Below the pieces are notes generated by a model. The model did no database searches. It was given only the letters and a program-made list of their open reading frames with translations, and was not told the DNA's origin. Made by a program: the position numbers and the translations under genes. Positions 6,682 to 40,395 of a DNA stretch of 44,043 nucleotides are shown here, one piece after another. Each line of letters begins with the position of its first letter. Positions within the stretch are counted from its first letter, which is position 1. The stretch is from Cyanobacteria bacterium P01_H01_bin.119 (lineage in GTDB: Bacteria; Cyanobacteriota; Cyanobacteriia; Phormidesmidales; Phormidesmidaceae), in NCBI GenBank assembly GCA_039177155.1, contig JBCDFX010000001.1:1-44043 (forward strand), in the 5' to 3' direction.

Positions 6682-6778
6682 GGACAGATTATTTGTCGCA
6701 TCGAGTATCGCTGGGGTAGCTGGCGGATAAGCAATCTGGGTAATCTGACGCGCAGTCTGCCGGCAGACTGCGCGTCAG
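6682..6778 (-). repeat. Intergenic hairpin repeat, copy 1 (minus orientation), with its terminal module duplicated in inverted form to give a 34-nt perfect palindrome (6745-6778)
   Basis: GGACAGATTATTTGTCGCATCGAGTATCGCTGGGGTAGCTGGCGGATAAGCAATCTGGGTAATCTGACGCGCAG aligns with copy 4 (17867-17937: GGTCAGATTGCTTATCGCACCGGGTATCGCTGAAGGGGCTGATATAACTCAACCTGACGCGCAA). Confidence 0.7.
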
Positions 6779-6884
6779 CGGAAAGTTGTCTTCAGTTTTT
6801 ATAGAACTGATGTATTGTTAGGAGTACAGGCGATCGCACTCTAAGTTCGACAGTCTATCTATCTGCACCTATGCCCCTACTGCT

Positions 6885-8603
6885 ATGGAAGATTTGCAAC
6901 ATCCCCTCGGATCTGTGATTCAGGGCTCTCTTAGCCAGGGTTTGGAAGCGCGGCTGCACGCTGATGTCTCTGTGGAAGAGATGCGAGTGGGCAAGTTTTT
7001 GGTGGTGCAGGGGCAGCGATCGCGGTTTTTCTGCATGTTGACCGATGTCACCCTGGGGACGGCTAGCCCGCGAATTTTGGCCAATCCGCCGGCCCCGTCC
7101 AATGTGTTTATGCAGCAGGTGCTGGCGGGGACGGGCACCTATGGCACCATTGCGCTGTCGCCTATGCTGATGTTTACGCCAACGGACGGTGGCAAAGCTG
7201 ACGATCGACCCAAAAAGGGTCAGTCAACGGCAGGGCTGGGCTCTTACTCAGCCCAAAGCAGCGCCAATATTGAACTGCTGCCGGTCAAAACCATTCCCAA
7301 TCACTTTAGCCAGGTGTATGACGCCAGCGATCGCGACTTTCGAGCTGTATTTGGCTGGGAAGATGACCCCCATCGGCGCAATTTTTCCATTGGTCAGCCA
7401 ATCGATATGGAGGTGCCCATTTGCCTAGATTTAGACCGTTTTGTAGAGCGCAGTAACGGCATTTTTGGCAAGTCGGGGACGGGCAAATCGTTTCTGACCC
7501 GGCTGCTGCTCTCAGGGATTATCCGCAAGCGGGCAGCGGTAAATTTGATCTTTGATATGCACTCGGAGTACGGCTGGGAGGCCGTCAGTGAAGGCAAACA
7601 CTTCAGCACCGTAAAAGGGCTGCGCCAACTGTTTCCCGGACAGGTGCAGATGTTTACCCTTGATCCGGAATCGACCCTGCGGCGCGGGGTGCGGGATGCT
7701 CAAGAGCTCTACATCAGTTTTGACCAAATCGACGTGGAAGATTTGACCCTGGTGCGGGAGGAGCTGAATCTGTCGGAGGCCAGCTTAGAGAATGCCATCA
7801 TTTTGCGCAATGAGTTTGGCAAGCACTGGATTAGTCGTCTATTGGCGATGACCAACGAAGAAATCCAGGAGTTTTGCGAAACCAAGATGGGCAGCAAGTC
7901 GTCCATTATGGCGCTGCAGCGCAAGCTAAATCGGCTGGCGGATTTGAAATATATTCGCGGCGCCTGTCCCCACAACTATGTGAGCCAAATTTTAGAGGCC
8001 ATCGACGCCGGGCAGCATGTCATTGTGGAGTTCGGCTCCCAGTCCAATATGCTCTCTTATATGCTGGCAACCAATGTGATTGCCCGCCGCATTCACGCCA
8101 GCTATGTGCGCAAGGCCGACCGGTTTTTGCAGTCCAAAAATCCCAGCGATCGCCCCCAGCCGCTGGTAATCACCATTGAAGAGGCTCACCGGTTTCTCGA
8201 TCCGGCCACGGCCCGCCAAACCATTTTTGGCACCATTGCTCGGGAAATGCGCAAATATTTTGTCACTCTGCTAGTGGTGGATCAGCGGCCTTCGGGTATT
8301 GATAACGAGGTGATGTCCCAAGTAGGCACGCGGATCACCGCCTTGCTTAATGACGAAAAAGATATTGACGCAATTTTTACAGGGGTTTCCGGTGCCCAAA
8401 GCCTGCGATCGGTGTTGGCCAAGCTAGATTCCAAGCAGCAGGCGCTGGTGTTGGGCCATGCCGTACCCATGCCCGTCGTTGTGCGGACTCGGCCCTATGA
8501 TGAGCAGTTTTATGCCGAAATTGGCGATACCGCCTGGGAAAACCTGCCTAACGCGGCGATATTTGAAGCAGCCGCGGCGGCAAAAGCCGATTTGGGGTTC
8601 TAA
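6885..8603 (+). CDS. HerA/FtsK-superfamily P-loop ATPase (DUF87/HerA-like)
   Basis: 572 aa. It has an N-terminal barrel-like region, a Walker A motif (GIFGKSGTGKSF), a Walker B motif (PLVITIEEAHRF), and VVDQRPS, which is characteristic of HerA-type ATPases. Confidence 0.7.
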   Translation: MEDLQHPLGSVIQGSLSQGLEARLHADVSVEEMRVGKFLVVQGQRSRFFCMLTDVTLGTASPRILANPPAPSNVFMQQVLAGTGTYGTIALSPMLMFTPTDGGKADDRPKKGQSTAGLGSYSAQSSANIELLPVKTIPNHFSQVYDASDRDFRAVFGWEDDPHRRNFSIGQPIDMEVPICLDLDRFVERSNGIFGKSGTGKSFLTRLLLSGIIRKRAAVNLIFDMHSEYGWEAVSEGKHFSTVKGLRQLFPGQVQMFTLDPESTLRRGVRDAQELYISFDQIDVEDLTLVREELNLSEASLENAIILRNEFGKHWISRLLAMTNEEIQEFCETKMGSKSSIMALQRKLNRLADLKYIRGACPHNYVSQILEAIDAGQHVIVEFGSQSNMLSYMLATNVIARRIHASYVRKADRFLQSKNPSDRPQPLVITIEEAHRFLDPATARQTIFGTIAREMRKYFVTLLVVDQRPSGIDNEVMSQVGTRITALLNDEKDIDAIFTGVSGAQSLRSVLAKLDSKQQALVLGHAVPMPVVVRTRPYDEQFYAEIGDTAWENLPNAAIFEAAAAAKADLGF

Positions 8604-9032
8604 GCTGCATTCTTCAGCGAGTTTCAGTAATTTTTTGGTTTCAGTAATTTTATAGATTGCTGCTTTAAGAAGTTGATCTTAAAGTAAAGACAGTTTAAGC
8701 CAAATCCGATTTGAACCCTGGAGTTTTAGCTGAGAAAGAACTGTAACTCTGGATATGGACGTGGTTTAAAGCGCTGGCCGGAATGTAGCAGGCGAACCTG
8801 CACCTGGCTTTGCTGATTTTAAATACGAGGCTTTTTCCAATGCAGTACCATCGTAAACACTGTCGGACTCGAATTATTTGCAACAGCCTGCTGCTGGTGA
8901 CGATCGCGATCGCTACCACCTATATACTGGACAGTGTCAGATTATCGACGACGGACGGCACGGCAAGGTATCAGAGACTCCAGCGTTTGGCCTGGTACGG
9001 CGTTGTGATCAACGGCAACCGATAGAGATGAG

Positions 9033-9464
9033 ATGACCTACGCCAATACCAAAACCCTACTCAAAATTTTGATCGGCACGGCTTGGATTGACGGAGAAAT
9101 TCAGCCCGAAGAACGACACCACCTAAACCGAATCGCTGCCGATGCCGAGCTAGCTGACGACGACGATATTAAAGCGCTGCTACAGGGCTCAGTAAAAGTG
9201 ACTCCCCAGCACTGCTATGGCTGGGTGCAAGCCTATCTCGGCTCCGACCCCACAGCTGATAACTGCCGTCAGCTTATGGAATCGATTAGTGCCTTGGTTT
9301 ATAGCGATGGCGTAGTGGATTTGGAAGAGGCCAAACTGCTGAATCACTTGCAAACGGTTAGCCTGGGCGGCAATACCCCGCAGTCTCAGAACTCAGAAGC
9401 CGTTGCCAAAGGTGTTATCAGCTCCTTAAGGCAGTTTTATCGCAGTTTAGTGACGCAGAAATAG
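9033..9464 (+). CDS. TerB-like (tellurite-resistance TerB fold) protein
   Basis: 143 aa. The pattern LKILIGTAWIDGEIQPEERHHLNRIA ... ALVYSDGVVDLEEAKLLNHL is the two-repeat [AD]DG.[IV]...E...L pattern of TerB-family proteins. Confidence 0.6.
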   Translation: MTYANTKTLLKILIGTAWIDGEIQPEERHHLNRIAADAELADDDDIKALLQGSVKVTPQHCYGWVQAYLGSDPTADNCRQLMESISALVYSDGVVDLEEAKLLNHLQTVSLGGNTPQSQNSEAVAKGVISSLRQFYRSLVTQK

Positions 9465-9471
9465 CCGCGCT

Positions 9472-10101: not shown

Positions 10102-10235
10102 GGGTCTACTTAAAAATGAAACTGAAAAACTGGAAGGTTTGGCCACGTCAAAACAGCCATGCCGCGCTGTCCATTTTGGAACGATAGGTCAAAAATATGG
10201 CCTAACCAATCCCGCCCCATAGCCGTCGCCAGCCT

Positions 10236-10313
10236 GGTCGAGGCAATATAACGCGTCAGATTGCCAGTGAAATTAGCAGATTTCAAACGCTGGGTGCTCT
10301 CAGCAATCTGGCT
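10236..10313 (+). repeat. Intergenic hairpin repeat, copy 2 (plus orientation, divergent interior)
   Basis: GCGTCAGATTGCC...CGCTGGGTGCTCTCAGCAATCTGG keeps the TCAGATTGC / GCAATCTG arms and the CTGGGTGC core. Confidence 0.55.
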
Positions 10314-10398
10314 GGTGCTGCTGCGGGCGGGGAGATAGGGCAATCTGCTTAAAAGACGTTGCTATGGCAACATTTCGGTCTCTAACTGACGACAGCTC

Positions 10399-12648: not shown

Positions 12649-12654
12649 TGTTCC

Positions 12655-16021: not shown

Positions 16022-16822
16022 CTAGCGACGGGTAGCACCCGCGCCGCGATAAATTCGCTCAGACTGTTCACGAGAGAGCCGATTAAAGCCGGGCAGATGG
16101 GTCTGAGGAACCATTTTAGGCGTGTCTACTCGGCCTGCAGTTTGGCCCGCAGTTTGACCTGGGGATTGGTTCAGAGTCTGGCTGCCGGCTTCGGGGCTGA
16201 TTGGGCTCTGGGGCGGCACAAAAGCGTGATTTTCTGAATCATAGGCATACACACTGCCGGTTTCGATGTTGTAAATCCAGGCGTGAACGGTTAAATCGCC
16301 TCGATGCAGCTTGGAACGCACGGCTGGATAAGTGCGCAGATTGTCAATCTGAGTCAGCACGTTTTCAGCCACCAAAACTTCTAGGGTTTCCTGCTTCTCA
16401 AAGTGGCTGTAGTTGTCAAAAACCAGGCGACGGGTTCCCTCCGTATGGCGCAGCCAATTGTAGACCAGCGGCATTTCGTCTTCTAGCTTGCCCAGCTTTA
16501 GCAGCCCGTTCATTGCTCCGCAGCTCGTGTGACCGCAGACAATAATTTGCTGAATATCTAGCGCCTGCAGCGCATATTCAATCGTGGCCCCCTCACCCCC
16601 GTTGGTAGAACCATAGGGGGGCACGATATTGCCCGCATTGCGAATAACAAACAAGTCCCCCATATCGGCTTGGGTAATCAATGCCGGATCAACGCGAGAA
16701 TCGGAACAGGCGATAAACAGGACACGAGGATGCTGCCCGTGGGCTAGCTCAGAAAAAAGATTTTTATGGCTGGGAACATAGGTGCTTTGAAACTGCCGCA
16801 ACCCTTGAATTAGCTTTTGCAT
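16022..16822 (-). CDS. ccaA: Beta-class carbonic anhydrase with a C-terminal extension (carboxysomal CcaA/IcfA-like)
   Basis: 266 aa. It has the CSDSR and HTSCGA zinc-ligand motifs plus an extension of about 60 aa (with low-complexity GQTAGQTAG), as seen in CcaA. Confidence 0.75.
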   Translation of the reverse strand: MQKLIQGLRQFQSTYVPSHKNLFSELAHGQHPRVLFIACSDSRVDPALITQADMGDLFVIRNAGNIVPPYGSTNGGEGATIEYALQALDIQQIIVCGHTSCGAMNGLLKLGKLEDEMPLVYNWLRHTEGTRRLVFDNYSHFEKQETLEVLVAENVLTQIDNLRTYPAVRSKLHRGDLTVHAWIYNIETGSVYAYDSENHAFVPPQSPISPEAGSQTLNQSPGQTAGQTAGRVDTPKMVPQTHLPGFNRLSREQSERIYRGAGATRR

Positions 16823-16861
16823 TTAATCTGGCTCCCAAACAGCACTACAAGCTATAGCTTT

Positions 16862-16950
16862 GGTCAGATTGCGCTCTCCACCCAGTGTCGCTGGAGTTGT
16901 TGGCGCAGCAGCATCTGACTCGCAGCCTTGCCCTAATCGTCCCTTCGGCT
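16862..16950 (-). repeat. Intergenic hairpin repeat, copy 3 (minus orientation)
   Basis: The reverse complement reads CTGCGAGTCAGATGCTGCTGCGCCAACAACTCCAGCGACACTGGGTGGAGAGCGCAATCTGACCAAAGC. It ends 39 nt upstream of the ccaA ATG. Confidence 0.75.
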
Positions 16951-17014
16951 GCTATAACCTTACGCGAAAATTGAACCTGATGTCGCGCTGCAATGGCTTT
17001 TAATAACTGCTTTG

Positions 17015-17806
17015 TCAGTCCAGCAGGGCGATCGCGTCCCCGGCCTTAACAACACCCTCTATTAAAACTGCTCCATATACCCCGGCATAGCCTTCGTGAG
17101 CTTTAGCCACATGCTTAATGATCTCGGGACTTGCTTCTGAGGTGTCGGGGTCAAGGGTAATCATTTTGCAGCGGGGGTCGCGCTCTAGCACCGTTACTTC
17201 TAAGGTGTCGCCAATCTTCAACCGCTTGCCCACCAGCTCTTTCTCGTATAAAGGCGGTTTGTCCTCACTCCAAGTGACGTAAAAGTTGGAGCGGAAGCGC
17301 CGTTTATCGATTTCGGTGCCTAATTCTTGAGTCAACAGCTCACTGAGCTGGGTCGAAAATAGAGTCAAAGGGCGGCAGTCAAACTGGCCTCGCTGGGTAA
17401 AGTGCAGCTTGAGGGTGGGGTCTTTTGCCAGAGCCTTAAGATGCTCTAGAAAATCGGCATCATCAATGCTGTAGGTCTCACCGTTCGGGGTTTCTACTTC
17501 GACTGAGAACTGCTCTCCGTCTGGATAGAGCGGATTAATGCCGGGCGCTATTCTTTGGGCCGCTTCGAGATTGCCAGGCGTCACGGTGACAGCGGCTTCT
17601 TTGTAGCGAGGCTTGTAGAGCAGCAGAGATTCTTTGTCACGGCCCGTAAACCACGGAAACCCTGGATTGCCCTTTTCTGTAACCAGGCCATAGACGCGAT
17701 CGCCCATTACACCGGCAAAAGATACAAAGGCTTGCTCAAGGGTTTCCCCCATCATGCTTTTGACCGGATAGCGCCAAATACTCTCAATCGTGCCTACAAC
17801 CGCCAT
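17015..17806 (-). CDS. MOSC domain-containing protein
   Basis: It has an N-terminal beta-barrel (IESIWRYPVKSMMGE) and a MOSC core (RFRSNFYV...RDPRCKMITLDPDT). The ORF-track start at 17827 is a TTG, so I prefer the ATG at 17806. Confidence 0.8.
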   Translation of the reverse strand: MAVVGTIESIWRYPVKSMMGETLEQAFVSFAGVMGDRVYGLVTEKGNPGFPWFTGRDKESLLLYKPRYKEAAVTVTPGNLEAAQRIAPGINPLYPDGEQFSVEVETPNGETYSIDDADFLEHLKALAKDPTLKLHFTQRGQFDCRPLTLFSTQLSELLTQELGTEIDKRRFRSNFYVTWSEDKPPLYEKELVGKRLKIGDTLEVTVLERDPRCKMITLDPDTSEASPEIIKHVAKAHEGYAGVYGAVLIEGVVKAGDAIALLD

Positions 17807-17866
17807 AACAAAGATGCTCCAGTACAATGCTCAACTTACTAACGCCAGGTTTTAATCTATAACTCT

Positions 17867-17937
17867 GGTCAGATTGCTTATCGCACCGGGTATCGCTGAA
17901 GGGGCTGATATAACTCAACCTGACGCGCAACCCGTCC
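17867..17937 (-). repeat. Intergenic hairpin repeat, copy 4 (minus orientation)
   Basis: GGTCAGATTGCTTATCGCACCGGGTATCGCTGAAGGGGCTGATATAACTCAACCTGACGCGCAACCCGTCC, located upstream of the MOSC gene. Confidence 0.7.
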
Positions 17938-18104
17938 AAGCTTTACCTGCCTAAGCTTTATCTGCCCAAACCGACCTGCTCAAGCCTTTCAGCGGATTTT
18001 ATATAAACCTACGCTCTATGCTGCGTGCTCTTGAATTTCTTTGCTGTAGTGTTGCTAGCAAATCGCGATCGCCCCCCGCAGCAGTTTTGGTTTTACTGGC
18101 CTTT

Positions 18105-18719
18105 CTATTCCTGTTGTCTAAGCAAAAAGTGGACGGTGCCGTGGGGGATAAACCGGGTCTCTAGTGGAAGCTCGCTGCCGGGCTGGCAGTCTACCCGGGC
18201 ACCCATAGCCAGTAAATCTCTCAACGTTGTCTCCGGCTGATGGTGAATCTGGGCCAGGTGTTTATCTTTTAGATAGATCAGCGCAGCAATCTCATTCAGA
18301 GGCTTAGGCTGAGCAGCTAGTTGGGCATTAAATGCGACCAGATAATAGGCTTGATTAGACGCTGCCATGCTGCCGTGAGGGGAATGGCAATATTTGGCCC
18401 AAATTAGCTGAGGGTTGGGCAACTGATCGCTTAGCTCAATTGCCTTTAGCGTTCCATGTCCCTGCAGCAGATAGGTTTGGGCCGCGCTATCGATCTGGGC
18501 TATCACATCACCAATTTCTTCTTTCCCCTCCCGCCAAGCGCAATCCAAAAACGATTCTTGGCAATCGGCGCGTTTACCCCCTACGCCAAATAGCCGCACT
18601 GCTCCATTCCCTTCTTCGGATTCTCGTTTGGGCACAGCCAGCACGTGAAATCCTTGCCACATTAAAAACAGCGCTGCCCCGGCTGGGGTAGCAGGCCCAA
18701 TCAAATCGGATAAGCGCAT
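18105..18719 (-). CDS. Hypothetical protein, possibly a divergent Nudix-fold protein
   Basis: GGKRADCQESFLDCAWREGKEEIGD resembles the Nudix box G-x5-E-x7-REUxEExGU with one extra residue. I chose the ATG at 18719; the ORF track extends to 18761. Confidence 0.4.
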   Translation of the reverse strand: MRLSDLIGPATPAGAALFLMWQGFHVLAVPKRESEEGNGAVRLFGVGGKRADCQESFLDCAWREGKEEIGDVIAQIDSAAQTYLLQGHGTLKAIELSDQLPNPQLIWAKYCHSPHGSMAASNQAYYLVAFNAQLAAQPKPLNEIAALIYLKDKHLAQIHHQPETTLRDLLAMGARVDCQPGSELPLETRFIPHGTVHFLLRQQE

Positions 18720-18766
18720 CGCCTCAGGTTCAGGTGAGCTAGCCCTGCAGCCAGCGGCCAAAGTGG

Positions 18767-19837: not shown

Positions 19838-19961
19838 AGGTCGTCAAGTCTCCAGAGCAAAGTTTGTCTCAGCTGTAGGGGGGCAGTACAGGCAAGAGCC
19901 AAGCACCAATTTAAGAAATCTGCGAATCACCCACTAACAGGGCGACGAGCTATGGCAACCG

Positions 19962-20050
19962 GCCGAAACGTTCGGGCGAGTTGCGAGTCAGATTGCTTCT
20001 GTACCAGCAGCTCCAGCAATACTGGGTGCGGTAAGCAATCTAATCGAAGC
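19962..20050 (+). repeat. Intergenic hairpin repeat, copy 5 (plus orientation; closest to the consensus)
   Basis: GCCGAAACGTTCGGGCGAGTTGCGAGTCAGATTGCTTCTGTACCAGCAGCTCCAGCAATACTGGGTGCGGTAAGCAATCTAATCGAAGC. Confidence 0.8.
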
Positions 20051-20222
20051 TGCAGGTTTATCCCAAATTAGGTAGCAGGCGCAAGTGAGCGGAATGCCTA
20101 AAGCTGTTTGCCTAGACTACTGAATGAAGGATTTTTGCTGTTGTTAACTTAACTACGATTTGATTTTTGGCGGGCGGCATGGGTCAGCAAAGAGGCTGCC
20201 GTCACTATCATGCTGCTCTCAG

Positions 20223-23200
20223 TCATTCTGCTCTCGACTCAGCATGGGGTATTGAGGCAGCAGGGAGCGGATAGGTCGTTACCGTACCGTCTGGCCCAAT
20301 CCAGACGATGGCAGCAACGGGCTGTTGGGTGGCAAAGGCAGTCTCCTGATGAGCTTCTATGGCAATCCTGAGAGACTCGGGTAGGGCAACCTCATTCCAG
20401 CCGTTACCGACGCTCTGGGCAGGTAGGATAGATGCGATCCCATTGCCCCCACCCGCCGGTTTAAATTCGGTTGATATAGATTGGGCGAAGGGAACATTAG
20501 CCAGCGGCTGGGCAGCCCATGATCGTAGGGAAGTGCCGATGGTGTTGTGCCAGGGTCGAGCGGTGGTTTGCGTTGACCGATTGAGCGGTATCTGCAAAGC
20601 CGCTTCGATAGACGCTGCCCCCTGGGCAGGTATGTCCCAATGTCCTAAGACTTGCTGCACCCGTTCGGCCCCCCAGTTAGACAAAGTAGAGAGTTGCTGT
20701 GGAAATGATCGCACCTGTTGGGCGATAGTCTGAGCAATTTCTGTAGTTCGATCTTCAGATTGATTGGTTGCCGCAGCCATACCGCAAATCAGCGCGCCGG
20801 GCACTACCAGAGCCAGCGTCCGAGCTTTGAAACGATGACGACGATAGAGCTTACGGCTAGCGATAATGTAGCGCTCTGCTAATCCTGAGAGATCTTCTCG
20901 GTGCTGTCGCCAAAACACTTCCGCTTCTGACAGCCGCCGTCCCGACAGTAAATAATCAGTGTGACGCGGACAGCCGTGCTGCTGCCAGTCTTTAGCTGCG
21001 CCCTCCAGCTTGCGCTGGTGGCGCAGCGTATCCCGTTTTTCGCTAAGCCACTGCCGCATGGGTCCCCAACTGCGGATTAGAGATTCGTGGACAATATCAA
21101 TGGTTTCAGCAGATGAGCCGGGCTGATTCACTTTGAAAGCTGGCTGTAAGGACTTGCCCGCGCGCCAACTTAAAGATCGCTGACTATTGAAAGAGGGGAC
21201 ATCAGGACGGGGAGAGGCTAGCTTACGAGCCAGCTTAGTTTGCAGTGAGTCGGTGCTGCCAAGCCCCGGCCACTGTCCCTCTGGTAAAGCAAGTCCTGTG
21301 GCTGCTGCAGGAGTTGGCAGGGATTCTCGGTGAATAACAATCAGTTGCTCACGGGCCAAGCGATTGAGGATGCGAGTGACTAAATCTACTGGAAATCTGC
21401 AATTGATCAGTTCTGAGATGTGGGCCCGGCGCTGGCTATCGACGGCTCCTTCTCCCAGCTCACACAGGGTTAGAAAAATCCGCTGGGCAACCTGTTTTTC
21501 CCGGGCGTCAAGCTGCTCAAAAATGTGGGTTGCTCGCTGCCCCAGTAGGTTGCGAATGCCGCCTAGCTTTGTGTAAGCCGCCATGGTCAGGCGGGGGCGA
21601 TCGCGCTCTTGATCGATTTCTCGCTGCCGCCACAGTTCCACTAGGGTCTGCTGCAGCAGGGCCAACTCGCCAGGGGCACCCGCAACGTCTAACAAAATTG
21701 AATACAGCAAGTTGGGCTCTAGGGTGAGGCCCGCCTGCTGGGCGGGCTTGGTGATGGCCCCTTTGATTTGGTCATAGGTCATTGGGCCGAGCCAGAGAGA
21801 CTGACGAGCTAAGGCATCAGCCAAAGCTGGATAGGGCTTTAGATGGGCCTGGCAGGCTGTTTGCGAGACAATCACTAAGCTCAAGGCAGGCGTCGGATGG
21901 GCGATCGCCTGATCTAAGCACTGCAAAACGCGATCGCGCTGATTGCAAACTGCGTCAGACAGTCCTGGTGCAAATAGCGATTCAAACTGATCGAGAATCA
22001 GCACAAATCGGGCCGGTGCACATCGATGTGACGGAGAGGGCTGTAGCTGGGTTACCGTCTGTAGGGTCGTTGTTGAATCAGTACTGCTCTGAGTTTCCCC
22101 TAAGGCCGGCGGTAGGCTGGCCTGGGCTAATCGACTCAGGCTGTCTTTTCCCTGCCGTAGAAACTGCTCGGCTCGCTGGAGCTGTTCAGCCTGGGTAATA
22201 CTGTCTGCGCCTGAATCGACAAAGGCAGCGGCCAACTGCTGCAGGGGAGCATGGGCCAAGGCGAGATATCGAGTAGGCCAACGATCGCTGCCGGGAATGC
22301 ACTGCCCCTGGCGCAGTTGATAGATTAGCCCCGCCTGTACCAGAGACGTTTTACCAATGCCGGAGGCCCCGATAATGGCACTCAACGGCTGGCTATTAAC
22401 CCGCTCCAACAGTTGCCGGGTCAATTCCTCGCGACCGAAGAATTGGTCTCCCTGCCCTTCGGAAAAGGGAACCAGTCCTGGGTAGGGGCACTGAATGGAA
22501 GACGCTTCATTTAAATCTGATGGCCCGTAAGTCGGGAGAGTGTCCGTAAAAGCAGCTAGCTTACTTTGAGCGCGGGTCAGGATAATATCGCTGCCAGAAC
22601 TTTCAAACAAAGGCTGCTGAAGTTCTCCTTTAAGCCGCTGGCTGACCTGGCTAATTAACCCGTGACTGCCTACTACACCGCGATCGCCGTGGGGATCAAG
22701 CCCTTTTAGCACCGCCTGTGTAAATACGCTAAATGGTGATTCTAGTGATTCGTAGGCGGCCTCAAATTCGCGCGAGGCGGCCATAAACAATCGGTCTGTG
22801 CCGCTGCAAGCTCCCGGATCGGCCTCTAAAAAATTGAGAATTTCTCCACTATGGCAGCAGTCCAAAATAACGATACGCTGCCGAATCGGGCTTTCCTGCA
22901 GCAGTCGCCGCAGCCAAAAGAGAGAAAGCCCAAAATTGCCTTGCTCTGGATTAGTGTCGCTGGTCGCAAGATAGCCTTCGCGGATGCCTGCGTTGCGCTG
23001 AAATCCATGGCCTGAAAAATAAAATAGGGCCGTTTGAGGGATATTTCGACCGCTTGGTTTGAATAATTGAACAAGAGCATTTTCAAGGGTGCGGGCTGTT
23101 ACTGCGGTTCGCTGGCCTACCACAGGGCGATGAGCTTGAATAATTTCTGGCACTCGTTGTACCCGAAATTCTCCATGGGTTTGGAGCAGATCAGCGATCG

Positions 23201-24434: not shown

Positions 24435-27388
24435 TGGGCCTGTCCAATTAAGGTAAAAGCGGCCCAGTTTTGAGGGGATGGATAAACCGCCATCGTCTGC
24501 AGCATCGCCTGACGCAGCGCCTGGGCTTGATCGGGGTTGGACTGTCGCTGACGGTAAAACTCACTCATAAGCGCAGCAGTGGGCGCATCGGGAATAGCCC
24601 ATAGGGAAACAACAAGGCTAGAAGCACCCGCCGCGATCCAGGCGCGGGATAAGCCAACTACTCCATCGCCAGTGATGCTACCTCGCCCCGTGTCGCAGGC
24701 ACTCAGGACAATCAGTTGAGCTTGAGTCGATAGGCTGAGAATCTCTCGGGTGGTGAGCAAGCCGTCCTCTGCGCCATCGGGCGTCAGCGCGATCGCCCCT
24801 GGAATATCCGCTGCCCCAGGCCCAAGCCCATAGTCCAGCAGTCCGTGGGTCGCTAGATGGATAATAGGAGCCGTGGTTATGTGATGCTTAACCGCAGATT
24901 CGGTGGCCTGCGCCCCAATTAGAGCGTCAGCGTTGAGCAGGGCAGCAATGTCTTGAGCCTCTGTTTCTGCTCCGGGTAAAGGCGCTAGGGACTCATTTTC
25001 CCCAAGCTGCGGCGACCAAAGGCTGGGCATCACTGGATTGCCAACAATTAACGGTGCGGTGCTACTGGGCGCGATCGCCTCGCGTCTCCGCCGGGTTAGG
25101 TCCATCACTTGAATCGACGGCGAGGTAATCAGGGTGTGATTTTCAATCAGATAGCGTCCTTCCGGACTTTTAAGCGCCGCAAAGGGCACCAAAAACAGCT
25201 CCTGGTGAGGCACAATCACCACATGGGCGGTGGGGTCGGTTGGCATCAAATCAGCAATAGGGGCAATCAAAATGTCATAGAGCGAGGCTAGAGCCGCGTC
25301 GTCAGCATTTTCCAGGCCACCGGCAGCTACCACGCCCACGCCCCGACGCGGACAGTTTCCTCGGTCGCTATCCGCTGCGCTCAGCGAGGCAGCGGGCTGA
25401 CTAAATGGCGGCAGCGTCACTCCACTGGTTTGACGAAATTCAACGATGCCATCGGGCTGCACAACCCAAATGTAGAGGGTGCAGGCATCTACCCAGGAGT
25501 ATTCCACTAGGGTGGCCTGATGCTGGGCTGCAATTCGTTGAATATCTGCTAACTGAATATCTGCTAAATGAGGCGCTTCTACAGGGCTAATCGTGTCCAA
25601 ATCCCCTAGCGCCAGTTCGCTTTGCTCTGAAGCGGGGAGCACCGCTACGCTGCCCAAACGAATCGTCAATAAATCGACTAGGGCACGAGTGCGGCTATTT
25701 TCAGAAATTTCCAGCGCTTTTTCGGGCTGGTTTTGGCGCACATAAAGCTGCTGGAGCGCCTGGTAGGTTTGAACCTGGGTATCGAATAGGCTAATTTTTG
25801 CCTCGTCGCTAAGGGAGCCAGAGCGGAGCTGGGTCAGCAGGGCGATCGCTTCTAGTAAATCTGCCTCTGCCGCCGGGAGATTATTTTGTCGCAGGCGGGC
25901 AATGCCCAAATTACTTAGGGTGGTCGCAGTGCCGCTGCGATCGCCAATGCCCTGGGCGATCTCTATGGCTGAGTTATAGGCTGCAATCGCCTCACCGTAG
26001 CGTCCCTGCTGACTGTAAACGTAGCCAATATTATTTAGGACTGTGCTTTCGCGATCTGGAATTTCCAGGGCTTGAAAAATTTCCAGGGCGTCTTTGTAGT
26101 GGGTTAGGGATTGCTCAAAATCCCCCAAATCGTCATAAACTGCGCCAATATTAATCTGCAGTGCGCCAAGCTTAGCGGGCATATCTAGGTCTTGGATAAT
26201 CGCTAGGCTTTGCTCATACTGGGCAAGGGCCTCGTCGTAGCGTCCCTGGCTGTAATAGGCTTGGCCTATATTGTTGTAGCTGGTGGCCATGCCCACAGTG
26301 TCATCTAGACGAATGCGGATCTCTAGCGCCTGCTGGTAGTACTCTAGCGCCTGCTGTAGCTGCCCCAAATCCAGGGCAAAACTCCCTAAGTTACTGAGCA
26401 CCACTGCTTCTCCAGCAGGGTCGCCGAGATCTTGCATAATCTCTAAGCTTTGTTGATAGCTCCCTAACGCCTCGCCATAATTGCCCTGGGCGCGGTGGTG
26501 CTCGGCAATATTATTAAGGGTGCTGGCCTCCCCGGCCCGATCGCCTAGCCCCTGCCGCAGGGTTAGGGCTTGGGCGTAAACGGCTGATGCGGCATCAAAA
26601 TCCCCCTGTTCGACATAGGCTGCGCCCAAGCTGTTGAGGGTGCTGGCTTCTCCAGGGCGATCGCCAATTCGCTGCTGAATGGCCAGCGCCTGCTGGTATA
26701 GCGCGATCGCATCGGTATAGGTGCCTCGGTTATAGTGAGCCACGCCCATGCTTTTCAGCGTGTCGGCTTCCCCACGAGGGCGATTGAGCCGCCGGTAGAG
26801 GACTAGGGCCTGGGCATAGGTCTCCAACGCCAGGTCAGTCTGGCCGCGAAAGTCGTAAATGCTGGCGATATTGTTAAGGGCTGTCGCCTCACCTTCCGGC
26901 TCTGAGGTGTCTTGAAAGATGCTTAGAGCTTGCTGGTAGTACTCTAGGGCAGCGGTTGAGTCGCCAAGACGCTGCTGAATCAGTCCAATTTGGTTGAGCG
27001 CTGTTCCCTCTCCCACGCGATCGCCTACTTCTTGGCTAATAGTCAACGCTTGGTTGAGGGCCGCGATCGCGTCATCATAGCGCCCCATACTGTCATAGGT
27101 TGAGCCAATCCAACTGTAGACAATGCCCTCGTAAAAGCGATCGCCGGCCTGTTGATATAGCTGTAGAGAGAGCTGAAGTCGCTGAAGCGCTAAGGGAAAA
27201 GCGCCTTGACGCAGCGCTTCAATGCCTTGGTGCAGGAGCTGGTGGGGATCGGTGCTGAGTTGAGTAAGGGAAAGGGGTTCGTTGGCGATCGCCGGAATGG
27301 ACAAAAAAGTGACCCAAAACAGAGGAGTCACCAAGCTCCACAGCAAGAGCCCGGCACGACCTGCAAATCGGTTGAAATAAGCATTCAT
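24431..27388 (-). CDS. TPR-repeat protein with a C-terminal CHAT (caspase-HetF-like) protease domain and an N-terminal signal/anchor
   Basis: 985 aa. It has an N-terminal hydrophobic segment ending AIA-NE, then about 12 TPR units of about 40 aa (GD..GEA..LNN[IL]G.[AV]Y...G.Y..A...Y.Q.L.I). The CHAT domain carries HLATHG and LSACDTG. Confidence 0.85.
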   Translation of the reverse strand: MNAYFNRFAGRAGLLLWSLVTPLFWVTFLSIPAIANEPLSLTQLSTDPHQLLHQGIEALRQGAFPLALQRLQLSLQLYQQAGDRFYEGIVYSWIGSTYDSMGRYDDAIAALNQALTISQEVGDRVGEGTALNQIGLIQQRLGDSTAALEYYQQALSIFQDTSEPEGEATALNNIASIYDFRGQTDLALETYAQALVLYRRLNRPRGEADTLKSMGVAHYNRGTYTDAIALYQQALAIQQRIGDRPGEASTLNSLGAAYVEQGDFDAASAVYAQALTLRQGLGDRAGEASTLNNIAEHHRAQGNYGEALGSYQQSLEIMQDLGDPAGEAVVLSNLGSFALDLGQLQQALEYYQQALEIRIRLDDTVGMATSYNNIGQAYYSQGRYDEALAQYEQSLAIIQDLDMPAKLGALQINIGAVYDDLGDFEQSLTHYKDALEIFQALEIPDRESTVLNNIGYVYSQQGRYGEAIAAYNSAIEIAQGIGDRSGTATTLSNLGIARLRQNNLPAAEADLLEAIALLTQLRSGSLSDEAKISLFDTQVQTYQALQQLYVRQNQPEKALEISENSRTRALVDLLTIRLGSVAVLPASEQSELALGDLDTISPVEAPHLADIQLADIQRIAAQHQATLVEYSWVDACTLYIWVVQPDGIVEFRQTSGVTLPPFSQPAASLSAADSDRGNCPRRGVGVVAAGGLENADDAALASLYDILIAPIADLMPTDPTAHVVIVPHQELFLVPFAALKSPEGRYLIENHTLITSPSIQVMDLTRRRREAIAPSSTAPLIVGNPVMPSLWSPQLGENESLAPLPGAETEAQDIAALLNADALIGAQATESAVKHHITTAPIIHLATHGLLDYGLGPGAADIPGAIALTPDGAEDGLLTTREILSLSTQAQLIVLSACDTGRGSITGDGVVGLSRAWIAAGASSLVVSLWAIPDAPTAALMSEFYRQRQSNPDQAQALRQAMLQTMAVYPSPQNWAAFTLIGQAH

Positions 27389-27424
27389 GGCTAGCGACCG
27401 ATGACTTCAGCAGCAGACCGCGAC

Positions 27425-27509
27425 AAGGGTTGATCTAGGCTGCAAGTCAGATTGATTTGAAAGACAACCCCTCCATCGATACTGGGTGGAGCGCGCAATC
27501 CGACCAAAG
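27425..27509 (+). repeat. Intergenic hairpin repeat, copy 6 (plus orientation), first of a tandem pair
   Basis: GGCTGCAAGTCAGATTGATTTGAAAGACAACCCCTCCATCGATACTGGGTGGAGCGCGCAATCCGACCAAAG. It starts about 40 nt from the CHAT gene ATG (27388). Confidence 0.7.
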
Positions 27510-27591
27510 TTACAGTTCCAACGTAAGAGCGACCTTGGGATTTTCGGAAGATCTGATGTTGAATATTCACATTGCCTTGCTCCAGCAATTT

Positions 27592-27681
27592 GCCGATAGG
27601 TCTGGGCAGGGTTGCAAGTTAAATTGCTTCTACGCCAGCCCCTCCAGCGATACCTGGTGCGACAAGCAATCTGATCAAAGG
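27592..27681 (+). repeat. Intergenic hairpin repeat, copy 7 (plus orientation), second of the tandem pair
   Basis: GCCGATAGGTCTGGGCAGGGTTGCAAGTTAAATTGCTTCTACGCCAGCCCCTCCAGCGATACCTGGTGCGACAAGCAATCTGATCAAAGG. It is preceded by a partial module, CTCCAGCAATTTG. Confidence 0.75.
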
Positions 27682-27791
27682 TATAGAGCGCGTCATTAGT
27701 TTTAGCCAGCTTTTTAGGGTAGGCTCAGTCCGCTCTCAGCTTGGCCCATTGAAATAAAGACAGTTTCAATCCATTCCATTAGGTTATTCCT

Positions 27792-29596: not shown

Positions 29597-29615
29597 CGCG
29601 CAACCGAATATAGCA

Positions 29616-29706
29616 GCCGAAAGGACGATTAGGAGGAGGCTGCGAAGCAGATTGCTTTGATGTCAACCACTCCAGCAATACTGGGTGCGCTAAGCAATCT
29701 AACCAA
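29616..29706 (+). repeat. Intergenic hairpin repeat, copy 8 (plus orientation)
   Basis: GCCGAAAGGACG...GCTGCGAAGCAGATTGCTTTGATGTCAACCACTCCAGCAATACTGGGTGCGCTAAGCAATCTAACCAA. Confidence 0.75.
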
Positions 29707-29728
29707 CGCTCTAGCTCTTAGATAATCA

Positions 29729-31837: not shown

Positions 31838-31938
31838 GCTCCAGCAATCTGCCGAACGGTTCAAGCTGGATTTCCAGTCAGATTACTTCTGCACCTATAA
31901 CTTCCGCGATACTTGGCCTGATGAGTAATTTGACCAAA
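31838..31938 (+). repeat. Intergenic hairpin repeat, copy 9 (plus orientation) with a compensated stem change
   Basis: CTCCAGCAATCTGCCGAACGGTTCAAGCTGGATTTCCAGTCAGATTACTTCTGCACCTATAACTTCCGCGATACTTGGCCTGATGAGTAATTTGACCAAA. The arms ATTACTT / GAGTAAT replace the usual ATTGCTT / AAGCAAT. Confidence 0.7.
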
Positions 31939-38156: not shown

Positions 38157-38176
38157 TTCCTATAGTTTTGCTGATT

Positions 38177-38893
38177 CTACTCAGCCAAAGCCAGTTCTGT
38201 ACTGCCGCGAGTACGACGGCGAGTCAATGTGTTAAATAGAAGCTGTCCAACTGCTTTGATAACACTACCCTCAAGCTCTTGAAATAATTTCATATTCATT
38301 TCAAAGGCAAGATTAGCTTCATCGACGATTTTATCTATCCTATCTTCGTCAAGGGGAAGCTCATCTAAGCGCTGCCGATATAGCGTCTTAAACTCCTTTT
38401 CGTTAGCAATATCTTTAAACTCGTAGAAGGCTGTTCCGTCTCCATTAGTAAGGTTCATAGCCCGTTGAGCAATGCCCTTAAGTATTTGCCCACCCGACAG
38501 ATCTCCCATATACCGAGTGTACAAATGGGCAATCAGTAGCTCAGGTTCGGTGTCAGATAGGGTTCTAATTCGTTCAACATAAGTTTGTGTCGCTGGAGAC
38601 GCCGAAATCAGCTTTTGCCAGTCAGCGCCGTAGTAAAAATCTAGATCCTGCTCCAGACTCTCCTGCCGATTAATTAAAGGAAAGTAAATCTGGCCGAGCA
38701 CTGAATGATTTTGATGTCGATCCATCTGAGCTTCCATCTCTGAATATACAAAATAGAGATTGGAAATCAGAGTGCGGTAGGATTTCTTCTCCACAACTCC
38801 TTTAAGAAAACATCTTACAAAGCCAACGTTCTCGGCCATAGTATGCGCTTTTTTTGTTCCTTCACGCAGCTTTTTTGATAAATCAGACCCCAT
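38177..38893 (-). CDS. ho1: Heme oxygenase 1
   Basis: 238 aa. LREGTKKAHTMAENVGFVRCFLKGVVEKKSY ... YTRYMGDLSGGQILKGIAQ ... TAFYEF ... LTRRRTRGSTE closely follows cyanobacterial HO-1 as I recall it. Confidence 0.9.
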   Translation of the reverse strand: MGSDLSKKLREGTKKAHTMAENVGFVRCFLKGVVEKKSYRTLISNLYFVYSEMEAQMDRHQNHSVLGQIYFPLINRQESLEQDLDFYYGADWQKLISASPATQTYVERIRTLSDTEPELLIAHLYTRYMGDLSGGQILKGIAQRAMNLTNGDGTAFYEFKDIANEKEFKTLYRQRLDELPLDEDRIDKIVDEANLAFEMNMKLFQELEGSVIKAVGQLLFNTLTRRRTRGSTELALAE

Positions 38894-38950
38894 TAACCTG
38901 CCTCTAATCTTTAACTAAACTAATCTGAAACTCTTCGAGACTACAGCAGC

Positions 38951-39040
38951 CCGTCGAAAGGTTTGGACAAACTACAAGTCAGACTGCTTTGACACCAATT
39001 GCTCCAGCGATACCAGGTTCAGCAATCAATCTGACCGAAA
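38951..39040 (+). repeat. Intergenic hairpin repeat, copy 10 (plus orientation)
   Basis: CCGTCGAAAGGTTTGGACAAACTACAAGTCAGACTGCTTTGACACCAATTGCTCCAGCGATACCAGGTTCAGCAATCAATCTGACCGAAA. Confidence 0.7.
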
Positions 39041-39175
39041 CCATAGCTTCTTAATCTTTCGAAATCCAATTCCAATAAGAATTGAAAGGAAGCTCTTTAG
39101 ACCCTCTTAAAAAGAAGATGCAGCCCTGACGGTAGCGATATTTATCTCATAATCTATTGACTTATCAGCCACCGT

Positions 39176-39202
39176 AAAAACTAACGCTTCTTCCACAAAG
39201 CG
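39176..39202 (-). terminator. Weak candidate terminator after the psbF-like gene
   Basis: The minus strand reads CGCTT-TGTGGAAG-AAGCG followed by TTAGTTTTT. The stem is only 5 bp. An alternative 8-bp stem, TAACGCTT / AAGCGTTA, spans the stop codon. Confidence 0.3.
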
Positions 39203-39233
39203 GATATCACTCACCGGCCCTAATGTAAAAGCG

Positions 39234-39536
39234 TTAAGCCCTTATTCGCCCCAAAACCTTTTTAATTTCTTGAAACGTTGGCTTGCCAAAGTTAATAACA
39301 TTCCAAAGTATTGATATGGCCAGCGGGAGCAGCACTAATGCTACGCGTGAATCAATGCCGAACAGCTCAACACTATCAGCTAGCTGATTATCGCGCCGAA
39401 TAAATTGCATCGAGGCGATCGCGCCCAAAAACCAAACCGTTGGTACGCCCAGGGCATGAATCGATAGCCATCTAACGGTATAGATAGGATACTCAATTTC
39501 AAATTTATTGGGTTGAGTTGGTGTATCTGATGTCAT
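39234..39536 (-). CDS. psbF: Cytochrome b559 beta subunit (PsbF)-like protein with a C-terminal extension of about 55 aa that contains a second predicted TM helix
   Basis: [33 protein letters not shown] matches the whole of canonical PsbF, including the heme-ligand His. The ORF then continues: [52 protein letters not shown]. Confidence 0.75.
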
Positions 39537-39566
39537 TATTTCAATCTCTTATTAATTGCTCAAACG

Positions 39567-39848
39567 TTACTTAATAGATGGCGCCATCTGTTCAGAGCGC
39601 TGCTGAAAATAGCTGTCAAGCTGTAGCTTTGCTTCACCTCGATCAGTCACAATTGGGGCTCCCATTCGGCCAGGTAACGCATAGTACTCGTTGGGATGAG
39701 GCGTGCCAAAGGCGTCGTAGGCAAGTCCAGTACTTACAAACAGCCATCCTGATATAAACACCGCTGGGAAATTGATGATGTGCAATAACCAAAACTGTGG
39801 ATCGGTCACAATATCCGACAAAGGACGCTCTCCAGTATTACCAGCCAC
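39567..39848 (-). CDS. psbE: Cytochrome b559 alpha subunit (PsbE)-like protein, divergent C-terminus
   Basis: GTG start preceded by [61 protein letters not shown] matches PsbE, including the His ligand. The last roughly 35 aa diverge. The protein is 93 aa, against about 81-83 aa for canonical PsbE. Confidence 0.8.
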
Positions 39849-40307
39849 TTTATTTCTCCCATCAAAATTTTTTACACCTCGTATTGCTGTGGCGTTTCAC
39901 ATCACCTTGCCGCTGTTAGTAATTCCAGGCAGGCGCTTACAGAACGCAGCGATACGATGACACCAGCTTGATTTAATTGAAATTAATTGTCAACAAGTGC
40001 GAAATTAAGATATGTTAACAAGCCTGTCTTTGGCTTCCGCTCTAGCGCCTGTAATCAATGATGTGTATAGACTATACGGATTGGCTTATGGTTAACCTGC
40101 TGAGGTGCTTTAGAATTCATCAAAATTAATCGATTTATATTGAGAACTAATATCAACTAGTAATGGCAGCAGTTGATAGTGTGATCTATCTATATCTTTG
40201 TTGCAGCCTAAATCTTCGTTCTTAAAAGAACGACAGTAAAGCTAGATGGCTTGCTGAATCAGAGTTAGCGCATGCAAGCTGCGCTGGAAAAAGCGGTGCC
40301 CACAGCA

Positions 40308-40395
40308 ACCCGCTGAAAGGTTCGGGCAGCTTGCGAGTTAGATTGCTTTTGCGCCAGCAACTCCAGCGATACCGGGTAATGAAGCCTGATTAGAC
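40308..40395 (+). repeat. Intergenic hairpin repeat, copy 11 (plus orientation), abutting the stop codon of the 840-aa gene
   Basis: CCCGCTGAAAGGTTCGGGCAGCTTGCGAGTTAGATTGCTTTTGCGCCAGCAACTCCAGCGATACCGGGTAATGAAGCCTGATTAGACG. Confidence 0.75.

Follow-up and report, generated by a model that had tools for sequence, protein, structure and literature searches.

The described repeats closest in design to the family reported here appear, by analogy, to be the BOX elements of Streptococcus pneumoniae and S. suis, which are composite repeats of the form boxA-boxB(n)-boxC (Croucher et al. 2011, PMC3049150). Like the element found in our cyanobacterial window (the whole analysed stretch of 44,043 nucleotides), BOX elements are small, intergenic, modular composites with predicted stem-loops and one module in variable tandem number, have their module sets swapped between lineages, seem dormant, and come with no demonstrated transposase or clear target duplication (PMC3049150). 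However, the two belong to different phyla and share no sequence relationship, and the middle module is the repeated one in BOX, whereas the 3′ hairpin (H2) is repeated in the cyanobacterial element.

Classical MITEs such as Correia/NEMIS of Neisseria, RUP of pneumococcus and Nezha of the Nostocales, the last reportedly mobilised by ISNpu3-like elements (PMC3049150, PMC10969869), are also short, non-coding, multi-copy, intergenic and lineage-restricted, with sharp inverted ends and strong secondary structure, and a TA-type insertion is plausible for the cyanobacterial element too. Its copies (102–106 nt) are non-coding, numerous and far shorter than the roughly 500 bp allowed for MITEs, and they differ in presence at orthologous sites, three of which lack the element in relatives. 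The inverted termini of Correia or RUP, however, measure about 20–30 bp, compared with 6 bp (TATAGC/GCTATA) here; a terminal inverted repeat of 6 bp is short for a classical MITE and counts against reading the element as mobile.

The hairpin-centred REP/BIME/REPIN-RAYT repeats and IS200/IS605 PATEs resemble our family in their intergenic location, high copy number, local hairpin clusters and compensated stems, and in having neither long inverted termini nor an evident duplication. In contrast to a REP, H2 is much larger (about 59 nt against a palindrome of 20–40 nt), and no GTAG or CGTC tag is conserved at it in the 48-copy alignment. Within an element, one hairpin is not related to the other, unlike in REPIN/PATE, which argues against a PATE, although TATA at both ends without flanking duplication would be compatible with one. 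Among cyanobacterial repeats, the SDR units of Nostoc/Anabaena are about 21–27 nt long and insert into one another, and HIP1 is the 8-mer GCGATCGC. These too are intergenic, very abundant, lineage-specific short repeats, but the unit found here measures 105 nt and has two hairpins, and the HIP1 octamer is absent from the element consensus.

The initial annotation of the window proposed a family of hairpin repeats with at least 11 copies, and the family proved to be real. A repeat search of the window grouped the listed positions into families of direct and inverted repeats, and the arm motif TCAGATTGCTT (at most one mismatch) was found 15 times against 1.09 expected, a number reached by 0 of 100 shuffles. 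Of the eleven listed copies, ten match the profile strongly (nhmmer E 4e-13 to 1e-28; covariance model, CM, 45–112 bits); the copy listed as 10236 is decayed and a possible twelfth, also decayed, was added, giving 10–12 copies in the window by nhmmer and covariance model, of which the weakest two are decayed (Table 1). Three minus and eight plus orientations among the eleven were confirmed, and the order of all twelve is -,-,+,-,-,+,+,+,+,+,+,+.

Table 1. Repeat copies in the window, with strand and profile support.
Positions	Strand	Feature	Support
919..1000 (about)	-	decayed possible twelfth copy, H2 remnants; COX2/OppC intergenic region	nhmmer E=0.03
6673..6776 (match 6673-6775)	-	copy, H2 and 3′ end GCTATA normal	nhmmer 3.5e-20 and 3.9e-13; CM 45.2 bits
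10218..10322	+	decayed copy (listed as 10236)	nhmmer E=3.8e-4, model positions 2-99; CM E=0.042
16853..16956	-	full copy, subfamily A; folds as H1 + H2	nhmmer 1.2e-28; CM 111.6 bits
17858..18005 (match 17858-17960)	-	copy with ~40-nt insertion inside H1	nhmmer 1.1e-19; CM 71.4 bits
19951..20054	+	full copy, subfamily B; fold z-score -2.9	nhmmer 5.1e-27; CM 99.9 bits
27409..27514	+	full copy, somewhat decayed; CHAT/DUF547 divergent region	nhmmer 7.5e-22; CM 80.8 bits
27581..27685	+	full copy, CHAT/DUF547 divergent region	nhmmer 2.6e-25; CM 93.2 bits
29609..29713	+	full copy, subfamily A	nhmmer 1.6e-26; CM 100 bits
31840..31944	+	full copy with G-C to A-T compensated H2 pair	nhmmer 2.6e-19; CM 84.7 bits
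38942..39045	+	full copy, psbF-like gene/heme oxygenase gene spacer	nhmmer 1.1e-21; CM 83.6 bits
40301..40378	+	copy, 3′ part lost or decayed	nhmmer 1.8e-18, model positions 2-79; CM 61.6 bits, forced end-to-end

Several copies have features of their own. The letters kept at 919..1000 are AAGGCTGC..GGGCAGATTGAT..AAGCAATCTAAAGCTG and also AGGCTGC..CAGATTG..AAGCAATCT, while the 10218..10322 copy retains CATAGC, GCGTCAGATTGCC, CTGGGTGC and CAGCAATCTGGC. The 6673..6776 copy, situated between divergently oriented genes and some 110 nt upstream of a DUF87/HAS-barrel gene, carries a 15-bp perfect palindrome (6747-6776) in place of H1, and the interrupted copy at 17858..18005 has its true 5′ end, TATATAAAATCCGCTGAAAGG, at 18005. 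The copy at 16853..16956 lies in sense orientation between the MOSC stop and the ccaA start, that at 19951..20054 is antisense to the genes on both sides, and that at 29609..29713 occupies the spacer between a 325-aa gene and the deacetylase gene. Lying 66 nt past its neighbour at 27409..27514, the 27581..27685 copy has a mismatched H2 stem and a fold z-score of 0.04. The gene distances first given were roughly right (30–42 nt to the ccaA start and about 21–27 nt to the CHAT start by our measure), and the reported copy next to the 840-aa S8/RTX gene is the decayed one at 40301..40378, which adjoins the stop codon (40397-40399).

From the alignment of 48 full copies, it is clear that the unit is about 105 bp long, rather than the 70–100 nt first estimated, and that it has sharp ends, 5′-TATAGC...GCTATA-3′, which had gone unrecognised and immediately outside which the information content drops to background. 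A 5′ hairpin of variable sequence (H1) is followed by the conserved hairpin H2, made up of GTCAGATTGC, about 38 nt including the near-invariant CCAGCRAYACNNGGTG, and then GCAATCTGAC; the GTCAGATTGC/GCAATCTGAC stem has 10–12 bp and a loop of about 38 nt, and nearly all copies have their right end exactly 10 nt downstream of the foot of this stem. Only TATAGC/GCTATA is inverted at the termini, end-to-end pairing (74.7%) being no better than in shuffles (73.7%), and the stem of H1 bears no relation to that of H2. An interior CCAG/CTGG mini-hairpin, as first proposed, was not borne out, since columns 75-76 vary without compensation and 14–16 of the 48 copies are unpaired there; the CCGAA-NNN-TTCGG mini-hairpin does exist, but is confined to subfamily type B. 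No T-run follows H1 or H2, and no reading frame is conserved, none being open in more than 17 of the 48 copies. Columns 48-63 and 81-86 are variable, in a pattern that follows subfamily and is not locus-specific.

Modularity is also seen in a solo H2 unit (in L045) and in independent local tandem H2 duplications, which give H1-H2 or H1-H2-H2 with at most two tandem H2 units. Adjacent elements share the terminal TA (2 nt) at one junction and TCTA (4 nt) at another. Among the 48 copies, no target-site duplication can be distinguished outside the conserved terminal TATA, and the left and right variants of this tetranucleotide mismatch within single copies; the target duplication might be TA or TATA itself.

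Further copies were found outside the window, with 60-odd on 49 contigs of one metagenome assembly, which includes the window species (L028 matches the window at 98.5% identity). The repeat is predominantly intergenic, 72 of 78 copies (about 92%) lying outside ORFs of at least 120 aa, and these intergenic regions comprise 13 divergent, 9 convergent, 7 tandem sense and 12 tandem antisense cases, with both orientations in every class and no preference in orientation or position relative to genes. The flanking genes are ordinary in the window and on the contigs. The 44-kb window contains neither a transposase gene nor an associated nuclease or recombinase gene, and the 141 flanking ORFs on the 49 contigs include no multi-copy transposase, only multi-copy families being visible by that check. 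Nor did the sequences covered yield a full-length parent element sharing these ends, which, like the lack of a transposase, counts against the mobile reading. Rfam gave zero gathering-threshold matches for the whole window and, for three copies, no overlapping match even with E relaxed to 5, and the plasmid and literature comparisons gave no match to the repeat.

Empty sites, a check suggested at the outset, were found in related cyanobacteria at three orthologous positions, in relatives 76–89% identical in protein, a distance at which exact insertion junctions are unreadable. Before the deacetylase gene (29609 site), L065 has a spacer of 8 nt where the window has 130 nt; at the 17858..18005 site, where three relatives lack about 145–155 nt, the conserved motif upstream of MOSC is 56–73 nt away from the gene in these relatives and 209–217 nt away in the window; and the psbF-like to HO spacer (38942 site) measures 95–123 nt in relatives and 340 nt in the window. 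Two other marine lineages, L068/L069 and L070, have diverged copies at non-orthologous sites, which keep the ends and H2 and have a different, unrelated hairpin as H1 in each. Among strains about 1% apart no insertion polymorphism was seen, and the ten window copies checked are all present in every strain compared (98.5–99.75% identity); since none of the copies are identical either, there is no direct evidence of recent movement.

Taken together, the sharp ends, the dozens of dispersed intergenic copies, the three sites without the element, the diverged non-orthologous copies in two other lineages and the lack of any Rfam, plasmid or literature match indicate that the repeat is probably a MITE-like composite, a mobile element that is non-coding, non-autonomous and about 105 bp long. 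Of the interpretations first offered, that of an unnamed REP- or MITE-type mobile element is supported by these results. We infer that it spread by transposition and that the family is old and now largely dormant. The family is real and has no existing name, yet as a bacterial genome parasite it is of an ordinary kind. In the proposed mechanism, the element ends and H2 would be recognised by a transposase whose gene lies elsewhere in the genome, and copies would have moved into AT-rich intergenic sites containing TA/TATA, often directly past stop codons; H1 retains its hairpin structure with an exchangeable sequence, and the H2 module can also duplicate locally in tandem. The enzyme responsible may well be a TA/TATA-targeting DDE enzyme, even if this falls short of an even chance, and a hairpin-reading HUH/Y1 enzyme is a weaker candidate.

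The stems are conserved in some respects and decayed in others. H1 pair 8-32 is G-C in 25 and A-U in 16 of the 48 copies, and GCAATCC/GGATTGC, GCAGTC/GACTGC and GCCGTAGC/GCTACGGC are further H1 stems. H2 pair 39-95 is U-A in the window species, U.G in L068 and C-G in L070, and the H2 core stays near-invariant despite a mean pairwise identity of 70% (maximum 96%, no identical pair) within the family. The G-C to A-T compensation first noticed at 31838 was confirmed but occurs only once, pair 46-88 being AU in 1 of 48 copies. The fold z-score is about -4 in consensus-like copies and about 0 in decayed copies, in which folding is lost, and RNAalifold found no consensus structure in the 48 copies. 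Stem mismatches of the G.U and A.C types are balanced (18 versus 14), meaning that no RNA strand is favoured. Between strains, substitutions amount to 0.97% in copies and 1.25% in other intergenic DNA, and the core columns hold 3 of 13 substitutions against 35% expected, from only 13 events. Judged from these sequences, individual inserted copies decay neutrally, and the best explanation would be that selection held the hairpins and the H2 core in source-copy lineages, which maintain the structure.

A more specific alternative, which we regard as rather unlikely, is single-stranded DNA transposition by an HUH (Y1) transposase, with the repeat derived from IS200/IS605 as a PATE or being REP/REPIN-RAYT-like; TATA would then be the target and cleavage tetranucleotide rather than a duplication, and H2 the subterminal recognition hairpin. 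The anatomy of hairpins over long inverted termini, with compensated stems and free H1 sequence, agrees with this, as do the absence of a flanking duplication beyond TATA and the junction at which two elements share the entire tetranucleotide TCTA, and the solo and tandem H2 units recall REP/BIME clusters. The right end of IS608 has been described with the end 10 nt 3′ of the hairpin foot, and the same spacing at H2 is a lead rather than a test. However, the ends of IS200/IS605 have similar hairpins, whereas H1 and H2 have stems that are not related; H2, with its long loop and without either tag, is unlike REPs; the copies in the window point both ways and show no strand uniformity; and no TnpA/RAYT gene occurs in the window or as a multi-copy gene among the flanking genes of the 49 contigs.

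Alternatively, though we consider this improbable, each copy might be kept because it has a host function where it sits. It could form an RNA structure through which transcripts are stabilised, processed or attenuated, which REP/BIME, ERIC and Correia elements are capable of, or a DNA cruciform to which a nucleoid or topology protein binds. Two sense copies do lie between co-directional genes (218-aa gene, MOSC, ccaA), 30–51 nt before start codons, and the MOSC-site element is probably transcribed, since it has the conserved upstream motif on one side and the start codon on the other; the near-invariant core and the covariation of the H2 stem between lineages also point this way. Yet the lack of any preference relative to genes, the missing T-runs, the symmetric mismatches and the many unfolded or truncated copies all argue against it, as do the lack of an RNAalifold consensus structure and of any Rfam match, and copies substitute like other intergenic DNA without clear depletion in the core. 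Termination or transcript stabilisation, raised initially, is thus unsupported as the main purpose. It is more doubtful still, to the point of being very improbable, that the copies are independently transcribed small RNA genes or guide-RNA scaffolds (omega-RNA, bridge-RNA-like): their compact structured size, the conserved H2 scaffold beside variable columns and the different sequence past the 3′ end at each locus would suit such RNAs, but the variable segments track subfamilies, no promoter or terminator signature is found at the copies, which decay, and neither a nuclease or recombinase gene in the window nor an Rfam family accompanies them. As for the protein-binding cruciform also raised initially, the idea is compatible with the mobile element, in which H2 is the predicted transposase-recognition hairpin.

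With at most one mismatch allowed, the window has 15 occurrences of the arm motif TCAGATTGCTT, where 1.09 would be expected, and a search for direct and inverted repeats links the positions listed in the initial annotation to one another. The window copies were then aligned, a profile was built from them and the window was rescanned, which returned ten strong copies and two weak ones; a covariance model found the same ten copies at 45–112 bits, with the weak copy at 10218 scoring E = 0.042. The repeat family is therefore well founded at the positions first proposed for it, although not every member is equally intact: ten of the eleven listed copies are strong, and the one placed at 10236 is the decayed member just mentioned. 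The family fills roughly 2.5% of the window.

From an alignment of 48 full-length copies, it is clear that the unit is a discrete element, since the information content falls to background directly outside 5′-TATAGC and GCTATA-3′. The element is 102–106 nt long and comprises a 5′ hairpin (H1), with the stem GCARCC/GGYTGC, and a conserved 3′ hairpin (H2), whose stem GTCAGATTGC(TT)/(AA)GCAATCTGAC encloses ~38 nt with a near-invariant CCAGCRAYACNNGGTG. Because CCAAAGCTATA comes directly 3′ of the H2 stem, the element ends 10 nt past it. Subfamily A has the H1 interior GAAGGGACGATTAGGACA, subfamily B has a lengthened H1 stem, GCCGAA-AGG-TTCGGC, and single copies bear quite different H1 hairpins. 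The CCGAA-NNN-TTCGG mini-hairpin noticed earlier at the 5′ side of many copies is thus present as the extended H1 stem of subfamily B, but the other H1 types differ from it.

Each H1 type is found with each H2 subtype, four pairings in all, and therefore the modules reassort. H2 also occurs on its own (at L045, a metagenome contig), and at four loci a second H2 unit stands in tandem. The tandem units are near-identical within each locus and different from those of other loci, a relationship that speaks for local duplication or conversion. The sequence GCTG/TTCAGATT is found at four junctions, and the pattern points to repeated events of local duplication or gene conversion at a favoured junction. 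In one window copy, H1 is replaced by a perfect loopless 15-bp palindrome (GACGCGCAGTCTGCC/GGCAGACTGCGCGTC), after which a partial duplicate of the H2 left arm follows (CAGATTAC CCAGATTGC).

Consensus-like copies fold into both hairpins with a z-score of about −4, and decayed copies have a z-score of about 0. Since RNAalifold found essentially no consensus structure on the 48 copies (−0.75 kcal/mol), hand-defined helices were tested instead. The H1 stem is paired in 88% of cells, with one pair split between G-C (25) and A-U (16) in step with the subfamilies; the H2 stem is paired in 87% and is almost invariant, its changes mostly breaking the pairing. The interior CCAG/CTGG hairpin proposed at the outset was not maintained across copies, and a closing helix joining both ends was rejected, as the ends pair in 74.7% versus 73.7% in shuffles. 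G·U and A·C mismatches are balanced (18 versus 14 in H2, 18 versus 13 in H1), so neither RNA strand is favoured. Copies in two other cyanobacteria still begin with TATAGC, end with GCTATA and contain H2, in which pair 39–95 is U-A in the window family, U·G in the relative L068 and C-G in the relative L070, and the H1 of the other lineages is a different hairpin in each case (GCAGTC/GACTGC, GCCGTAGC/GCTACGGC and CACAAAG/CTTTGTG). This cross-lineage covariation of H2, together with the changing H1 hairpins, argues that hairpin formation is selected in the lineages that produce copies; at each inserted copy, the hairpins are not visibly under selection. A coding repeat or peptide family was also considered and rejected: one frame gives Cys-rich peptides, but at most 17 of the 48 copies are open in any one frame, and the length differences are not multiples of 3. 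Searches for tRNA and tmRNA genes found none.

The window matches contigs of two MAGs (GCA_039025935.1 and GCA_039024935.1), one Logan assembly and one metagenome contig at 98.5–99.75% identity, and its nearest named relatives by protein identity are Halomicronema sp. CCY15110 (89%) and Nodosilinea and Leptolyngbya-like marine MAGs. A strict core pattern run across the GTDB species genomes gave 6 chance matches, all non-cyanobacterial; this is no proof of absence, because the pattern was too strict for the diverged copies later seen in relatives. A related pattern matched 51 metagenome contigs, 49 of them from the low-coverage assembly ERZ1740058, which contains the species of the window since one contig, L028, matches window positions 16149–18113 at 98.5%. 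Those contigs gave 77 profile matches to the repeat. The metagenome search pattern sits in the 3′ half of the element, so that 5′-truncated and H2-only copies are over-sampled, and the 5′-truncation bias was accordingly rejected, as ascertainment, as a sign of retro-type copying.

The copies are mostly intergenic: 72 of 78 lie outside ORFs of at least 120 aa, and the six inside ORFs seem to reflect ORFs that are spurious or whose starts were extended too far. They occupy divergent (13), convergent (9), tandem-sense (7) and tandem-antisense (12) spacers beside ordinary chromosomal genes. Several begin 0–1 nt past a stop codon (for example, TGA/TATAGC and TAG/TATAGC), and at one stop-adjacent copy the stop codon lies within the element end; because the element ends contain TAG in both orientations, an element that inserted into the final codons of a gene would bring a stop of its own. 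No transposase was found in the window, nor any multi-copy transposase among 141 flanking ORFs.

Pairwise identity of the copies averages 70%, with a maximum of 96% and no identical pairs, and no insertion polymorphism was seen, all ten window copies checked being present in the four to five available sources. Between strains, substitutions amount to 0.97% in the copies, 1.25% in other intergenic DNA and 0.92% in genes. Core columns received 3 of 13 between-strain changes versus 35% expected; a depletion of core-column differences among close pairs was given no weight, as that test is circular and the independent between-strain test has these 13 events only. A replication-strand signal was likewise rejected, since the apparent switch of orientation vanishes when both decayed copies are counted and GC skew is uninformative.

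Empty sites, which the initial annotation had suggested looking for, were found at three orthologous positions, in relatives too distant to give exact insertion junctions. In L065 (MAG J06635_15), the gene order M23 peptidase, 297-aa gene, deacetylase is kept, with 8 nt separating the second gene from the third (...CTGCTATAG CCAGTAAG TTG...); between the corresponding genes of the window the spacer measures 130 nt, of which the element makes up 105 nt. The element-free site reads GCTATAGC, the terminal motif of the element, and this single case hints at a TATA-type target. A ~30-nt motif (GCGATTTGCYAGCAACRCTACAGCAAAGAA) upstream of the MOSC gene, which may be a promoter or a regulator site, is conserved across four genomes within intergenic DNA that is otherwise unalignable. 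The distance from this motif to the coding-region alignment is 56–73 nt in three relatives and 209–217 nt in the window, the excess being the element including its enlarged H1; in the window the repeat has been inserted between the motif and the gene. The third site is the spacer from the psbF-like gene to the heme oxygenase gene, which measures 95–123 nt in relatives and 340 nt, element included, in the window. The region upstream of the M23 peptidase gene has no alignable sequence and so gave no fourth orthologous site to compare. The copies in L068/L069 and L070 lie at sites not common to the window, and ~46 kb of sequence from L009, L010, L062 and L065, four further relatives, contains no copies.

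Gene order around MOSC differs among three of these relatives (L009, L010 and L062) at 86–89% protein identity, and the ccaA–MOSC–218-aa arrangement was seen only in the species of the window, a sign that local rearrangement is frequent in this clade.

Coordinates of features in the window, in metagenome contigs (L013 to L059) and in relatives (L009, L010, L062, L068 to L071)
Feature	Sequence	Position (nt)	Strand
Weak copy	window	~919-1000	
Weak copy	window	10218-10322	
Copy with H1 replaced	window	6673-6776	
Palindrome in this copy	window	6747-6776	
Copy upstream of MOSC	window	17858-18005	
Copy in the spacer before the deacetylase gene	window	29609-29713	
Copy between psbF-like and heme oxygenase genes	window	38942-39045	
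Tandem H2 duplication	L013	1644-1803	
Tandem H2 duplication	L018	167-338	
Tandem H2 duplication	L029	1659-1783	
Tandem H2 duplication	L055	227-387	
Copy abutting stop codon	L015	559-564	
Copy abutting stop codon	L023	2922-2927	
Copy abutting stop codon	L034	2786-2787	
Copy abutting stop codon	L054	62-66	
Copy abutting stop codon	L059	181-185	
MOSC upstream motif	window	18037-18079	-
MOSC upstream motif	L009	429-471	
MOSC upstream motif	L010	~7916-7967	
MOSC upstream motif	L062	~1182-1218	
MOSC region compared	window	16022-18761	
b559-like pair and heme oxygenase	window	38177-39848	-
b559-like pair and heme oxygenase	L068	5302-6717	
b559-like pair and heme oxygenase	L070	9289-10717	
b559-like pair and heme oxygenase	L071	6480-7908	
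Conflict-system-like genes	window	20223-27388	
80-aa ORF	window	27457-27699	+

Taken together, the most economical reading of the repeat is a non-autonomous mobile element that was amplified in the lineage of the window and in relatives and is now largely quiet, because its copies have discrete ends, are dispersed, are biased towards intergenic DNA, are missing at orthologous sites in relatives, fall into lineage-specific subfamilies and decay neutrally. These six features support the mobile-element suggestion of the initial annotation; as to the mechanism, we infer two candidate movers. A TA/TATA-targeting DDE enzyme would fit the palindromic TATA ends, one junction where neighbouring elements share TA, and the GCTATAGC at the element-free L065 site. 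A hairpin-reading HUH enzyme would fit the very short inverted termini, the lack of a separable target duplication, the fixed 10 nt from the foot of H2 to the element end, a junction at which both elements have all four terminal bases in common, and the REP-like local multiplication of H2, but H1 and H2 are unrelated and the orientation is mixed. We consider it rather unlikely that H2 and its 10-nt tail ending in TATA form the recognition hairpin of a putative single-strand-DNA (HUH/Y1-type) transposase or domesticated RAYT-like enzyme; if true, this would be the first described REPIN/RAYT-like or PATE-like hairpin-guided system in one clade of marine Leptolyngbya-like cyanobacteria, with the second hairpin, H1, exchangeable. 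For a subset of the mobile-element copies, a candidate role as co-opted 5′-UTR or intercistronic RNA structures is possible, as is a putative host function at some loci, for example for two sense copies in the leaders and intercistronic spacers of the 218-aa gene, MOSC and ccaA.

The closest known design is the pneumococcal BOX element, which is modular with a variable tandem module, forms stem-loops and is dormant, its transposase being unproven (PMC3049150). Classical MITEs and REP/BIME elements each have some of these properties. Rfam gave no match to the repeat at gathering thresholds or permissive E-values, and the plasmid collection, IMG/VR and the literature, searched by sequence string, gave no relevant match.

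The family is chiefly useful for annotation and as a lead to its transposase. Its copies in promoters, 5′ leaders and intercistronic spacers matter for annotating and reading regulatory regions in poorly studied marine filamentous cyanobacteria, and the repeat breaks short-read assemblies, the same-species contigs that carry it being only 1–6 kb long. A profile of the repeat would also mask recurrent false small ORFs; an 80-aa ORF that spans two adjacent copies is almost certainly spurious. The conceptual value is modest, one hairpin keeping its sequence across lineages and the other its structure only, and this modular contrast is a handle for finding the moving enzyme.

Two other loci in the window were noted. 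A divergent cytochrome b559-like gene pair, encoding a 92–93-aa PsbE-like protein and a 95–100-aa PsbF-like protein whose C-terminal extension scores as PsbY-like, lies directly upstream of a heme oxygenase paralog. This trio is kept in several marine relatives, where it adjoins TonB-dependent receptor, periplasmic binding protein, Suc_Fer-like and AraC genes, a neighbourhood that suggests a heme/iron-related cluster rather than the canonical psbEFLJ operon. Elsewhere, two large conflict-system-like genes stand side by side with a small TerB-like gene between them, one encoding a caspase-like Peptidase_C14 plus nSTAND1 NTPase protein (1019 aa) and the other a TPR plus CHAT protein (985 aa); the CHAT/DUF547 divergent promoter region holds two repeat copies.
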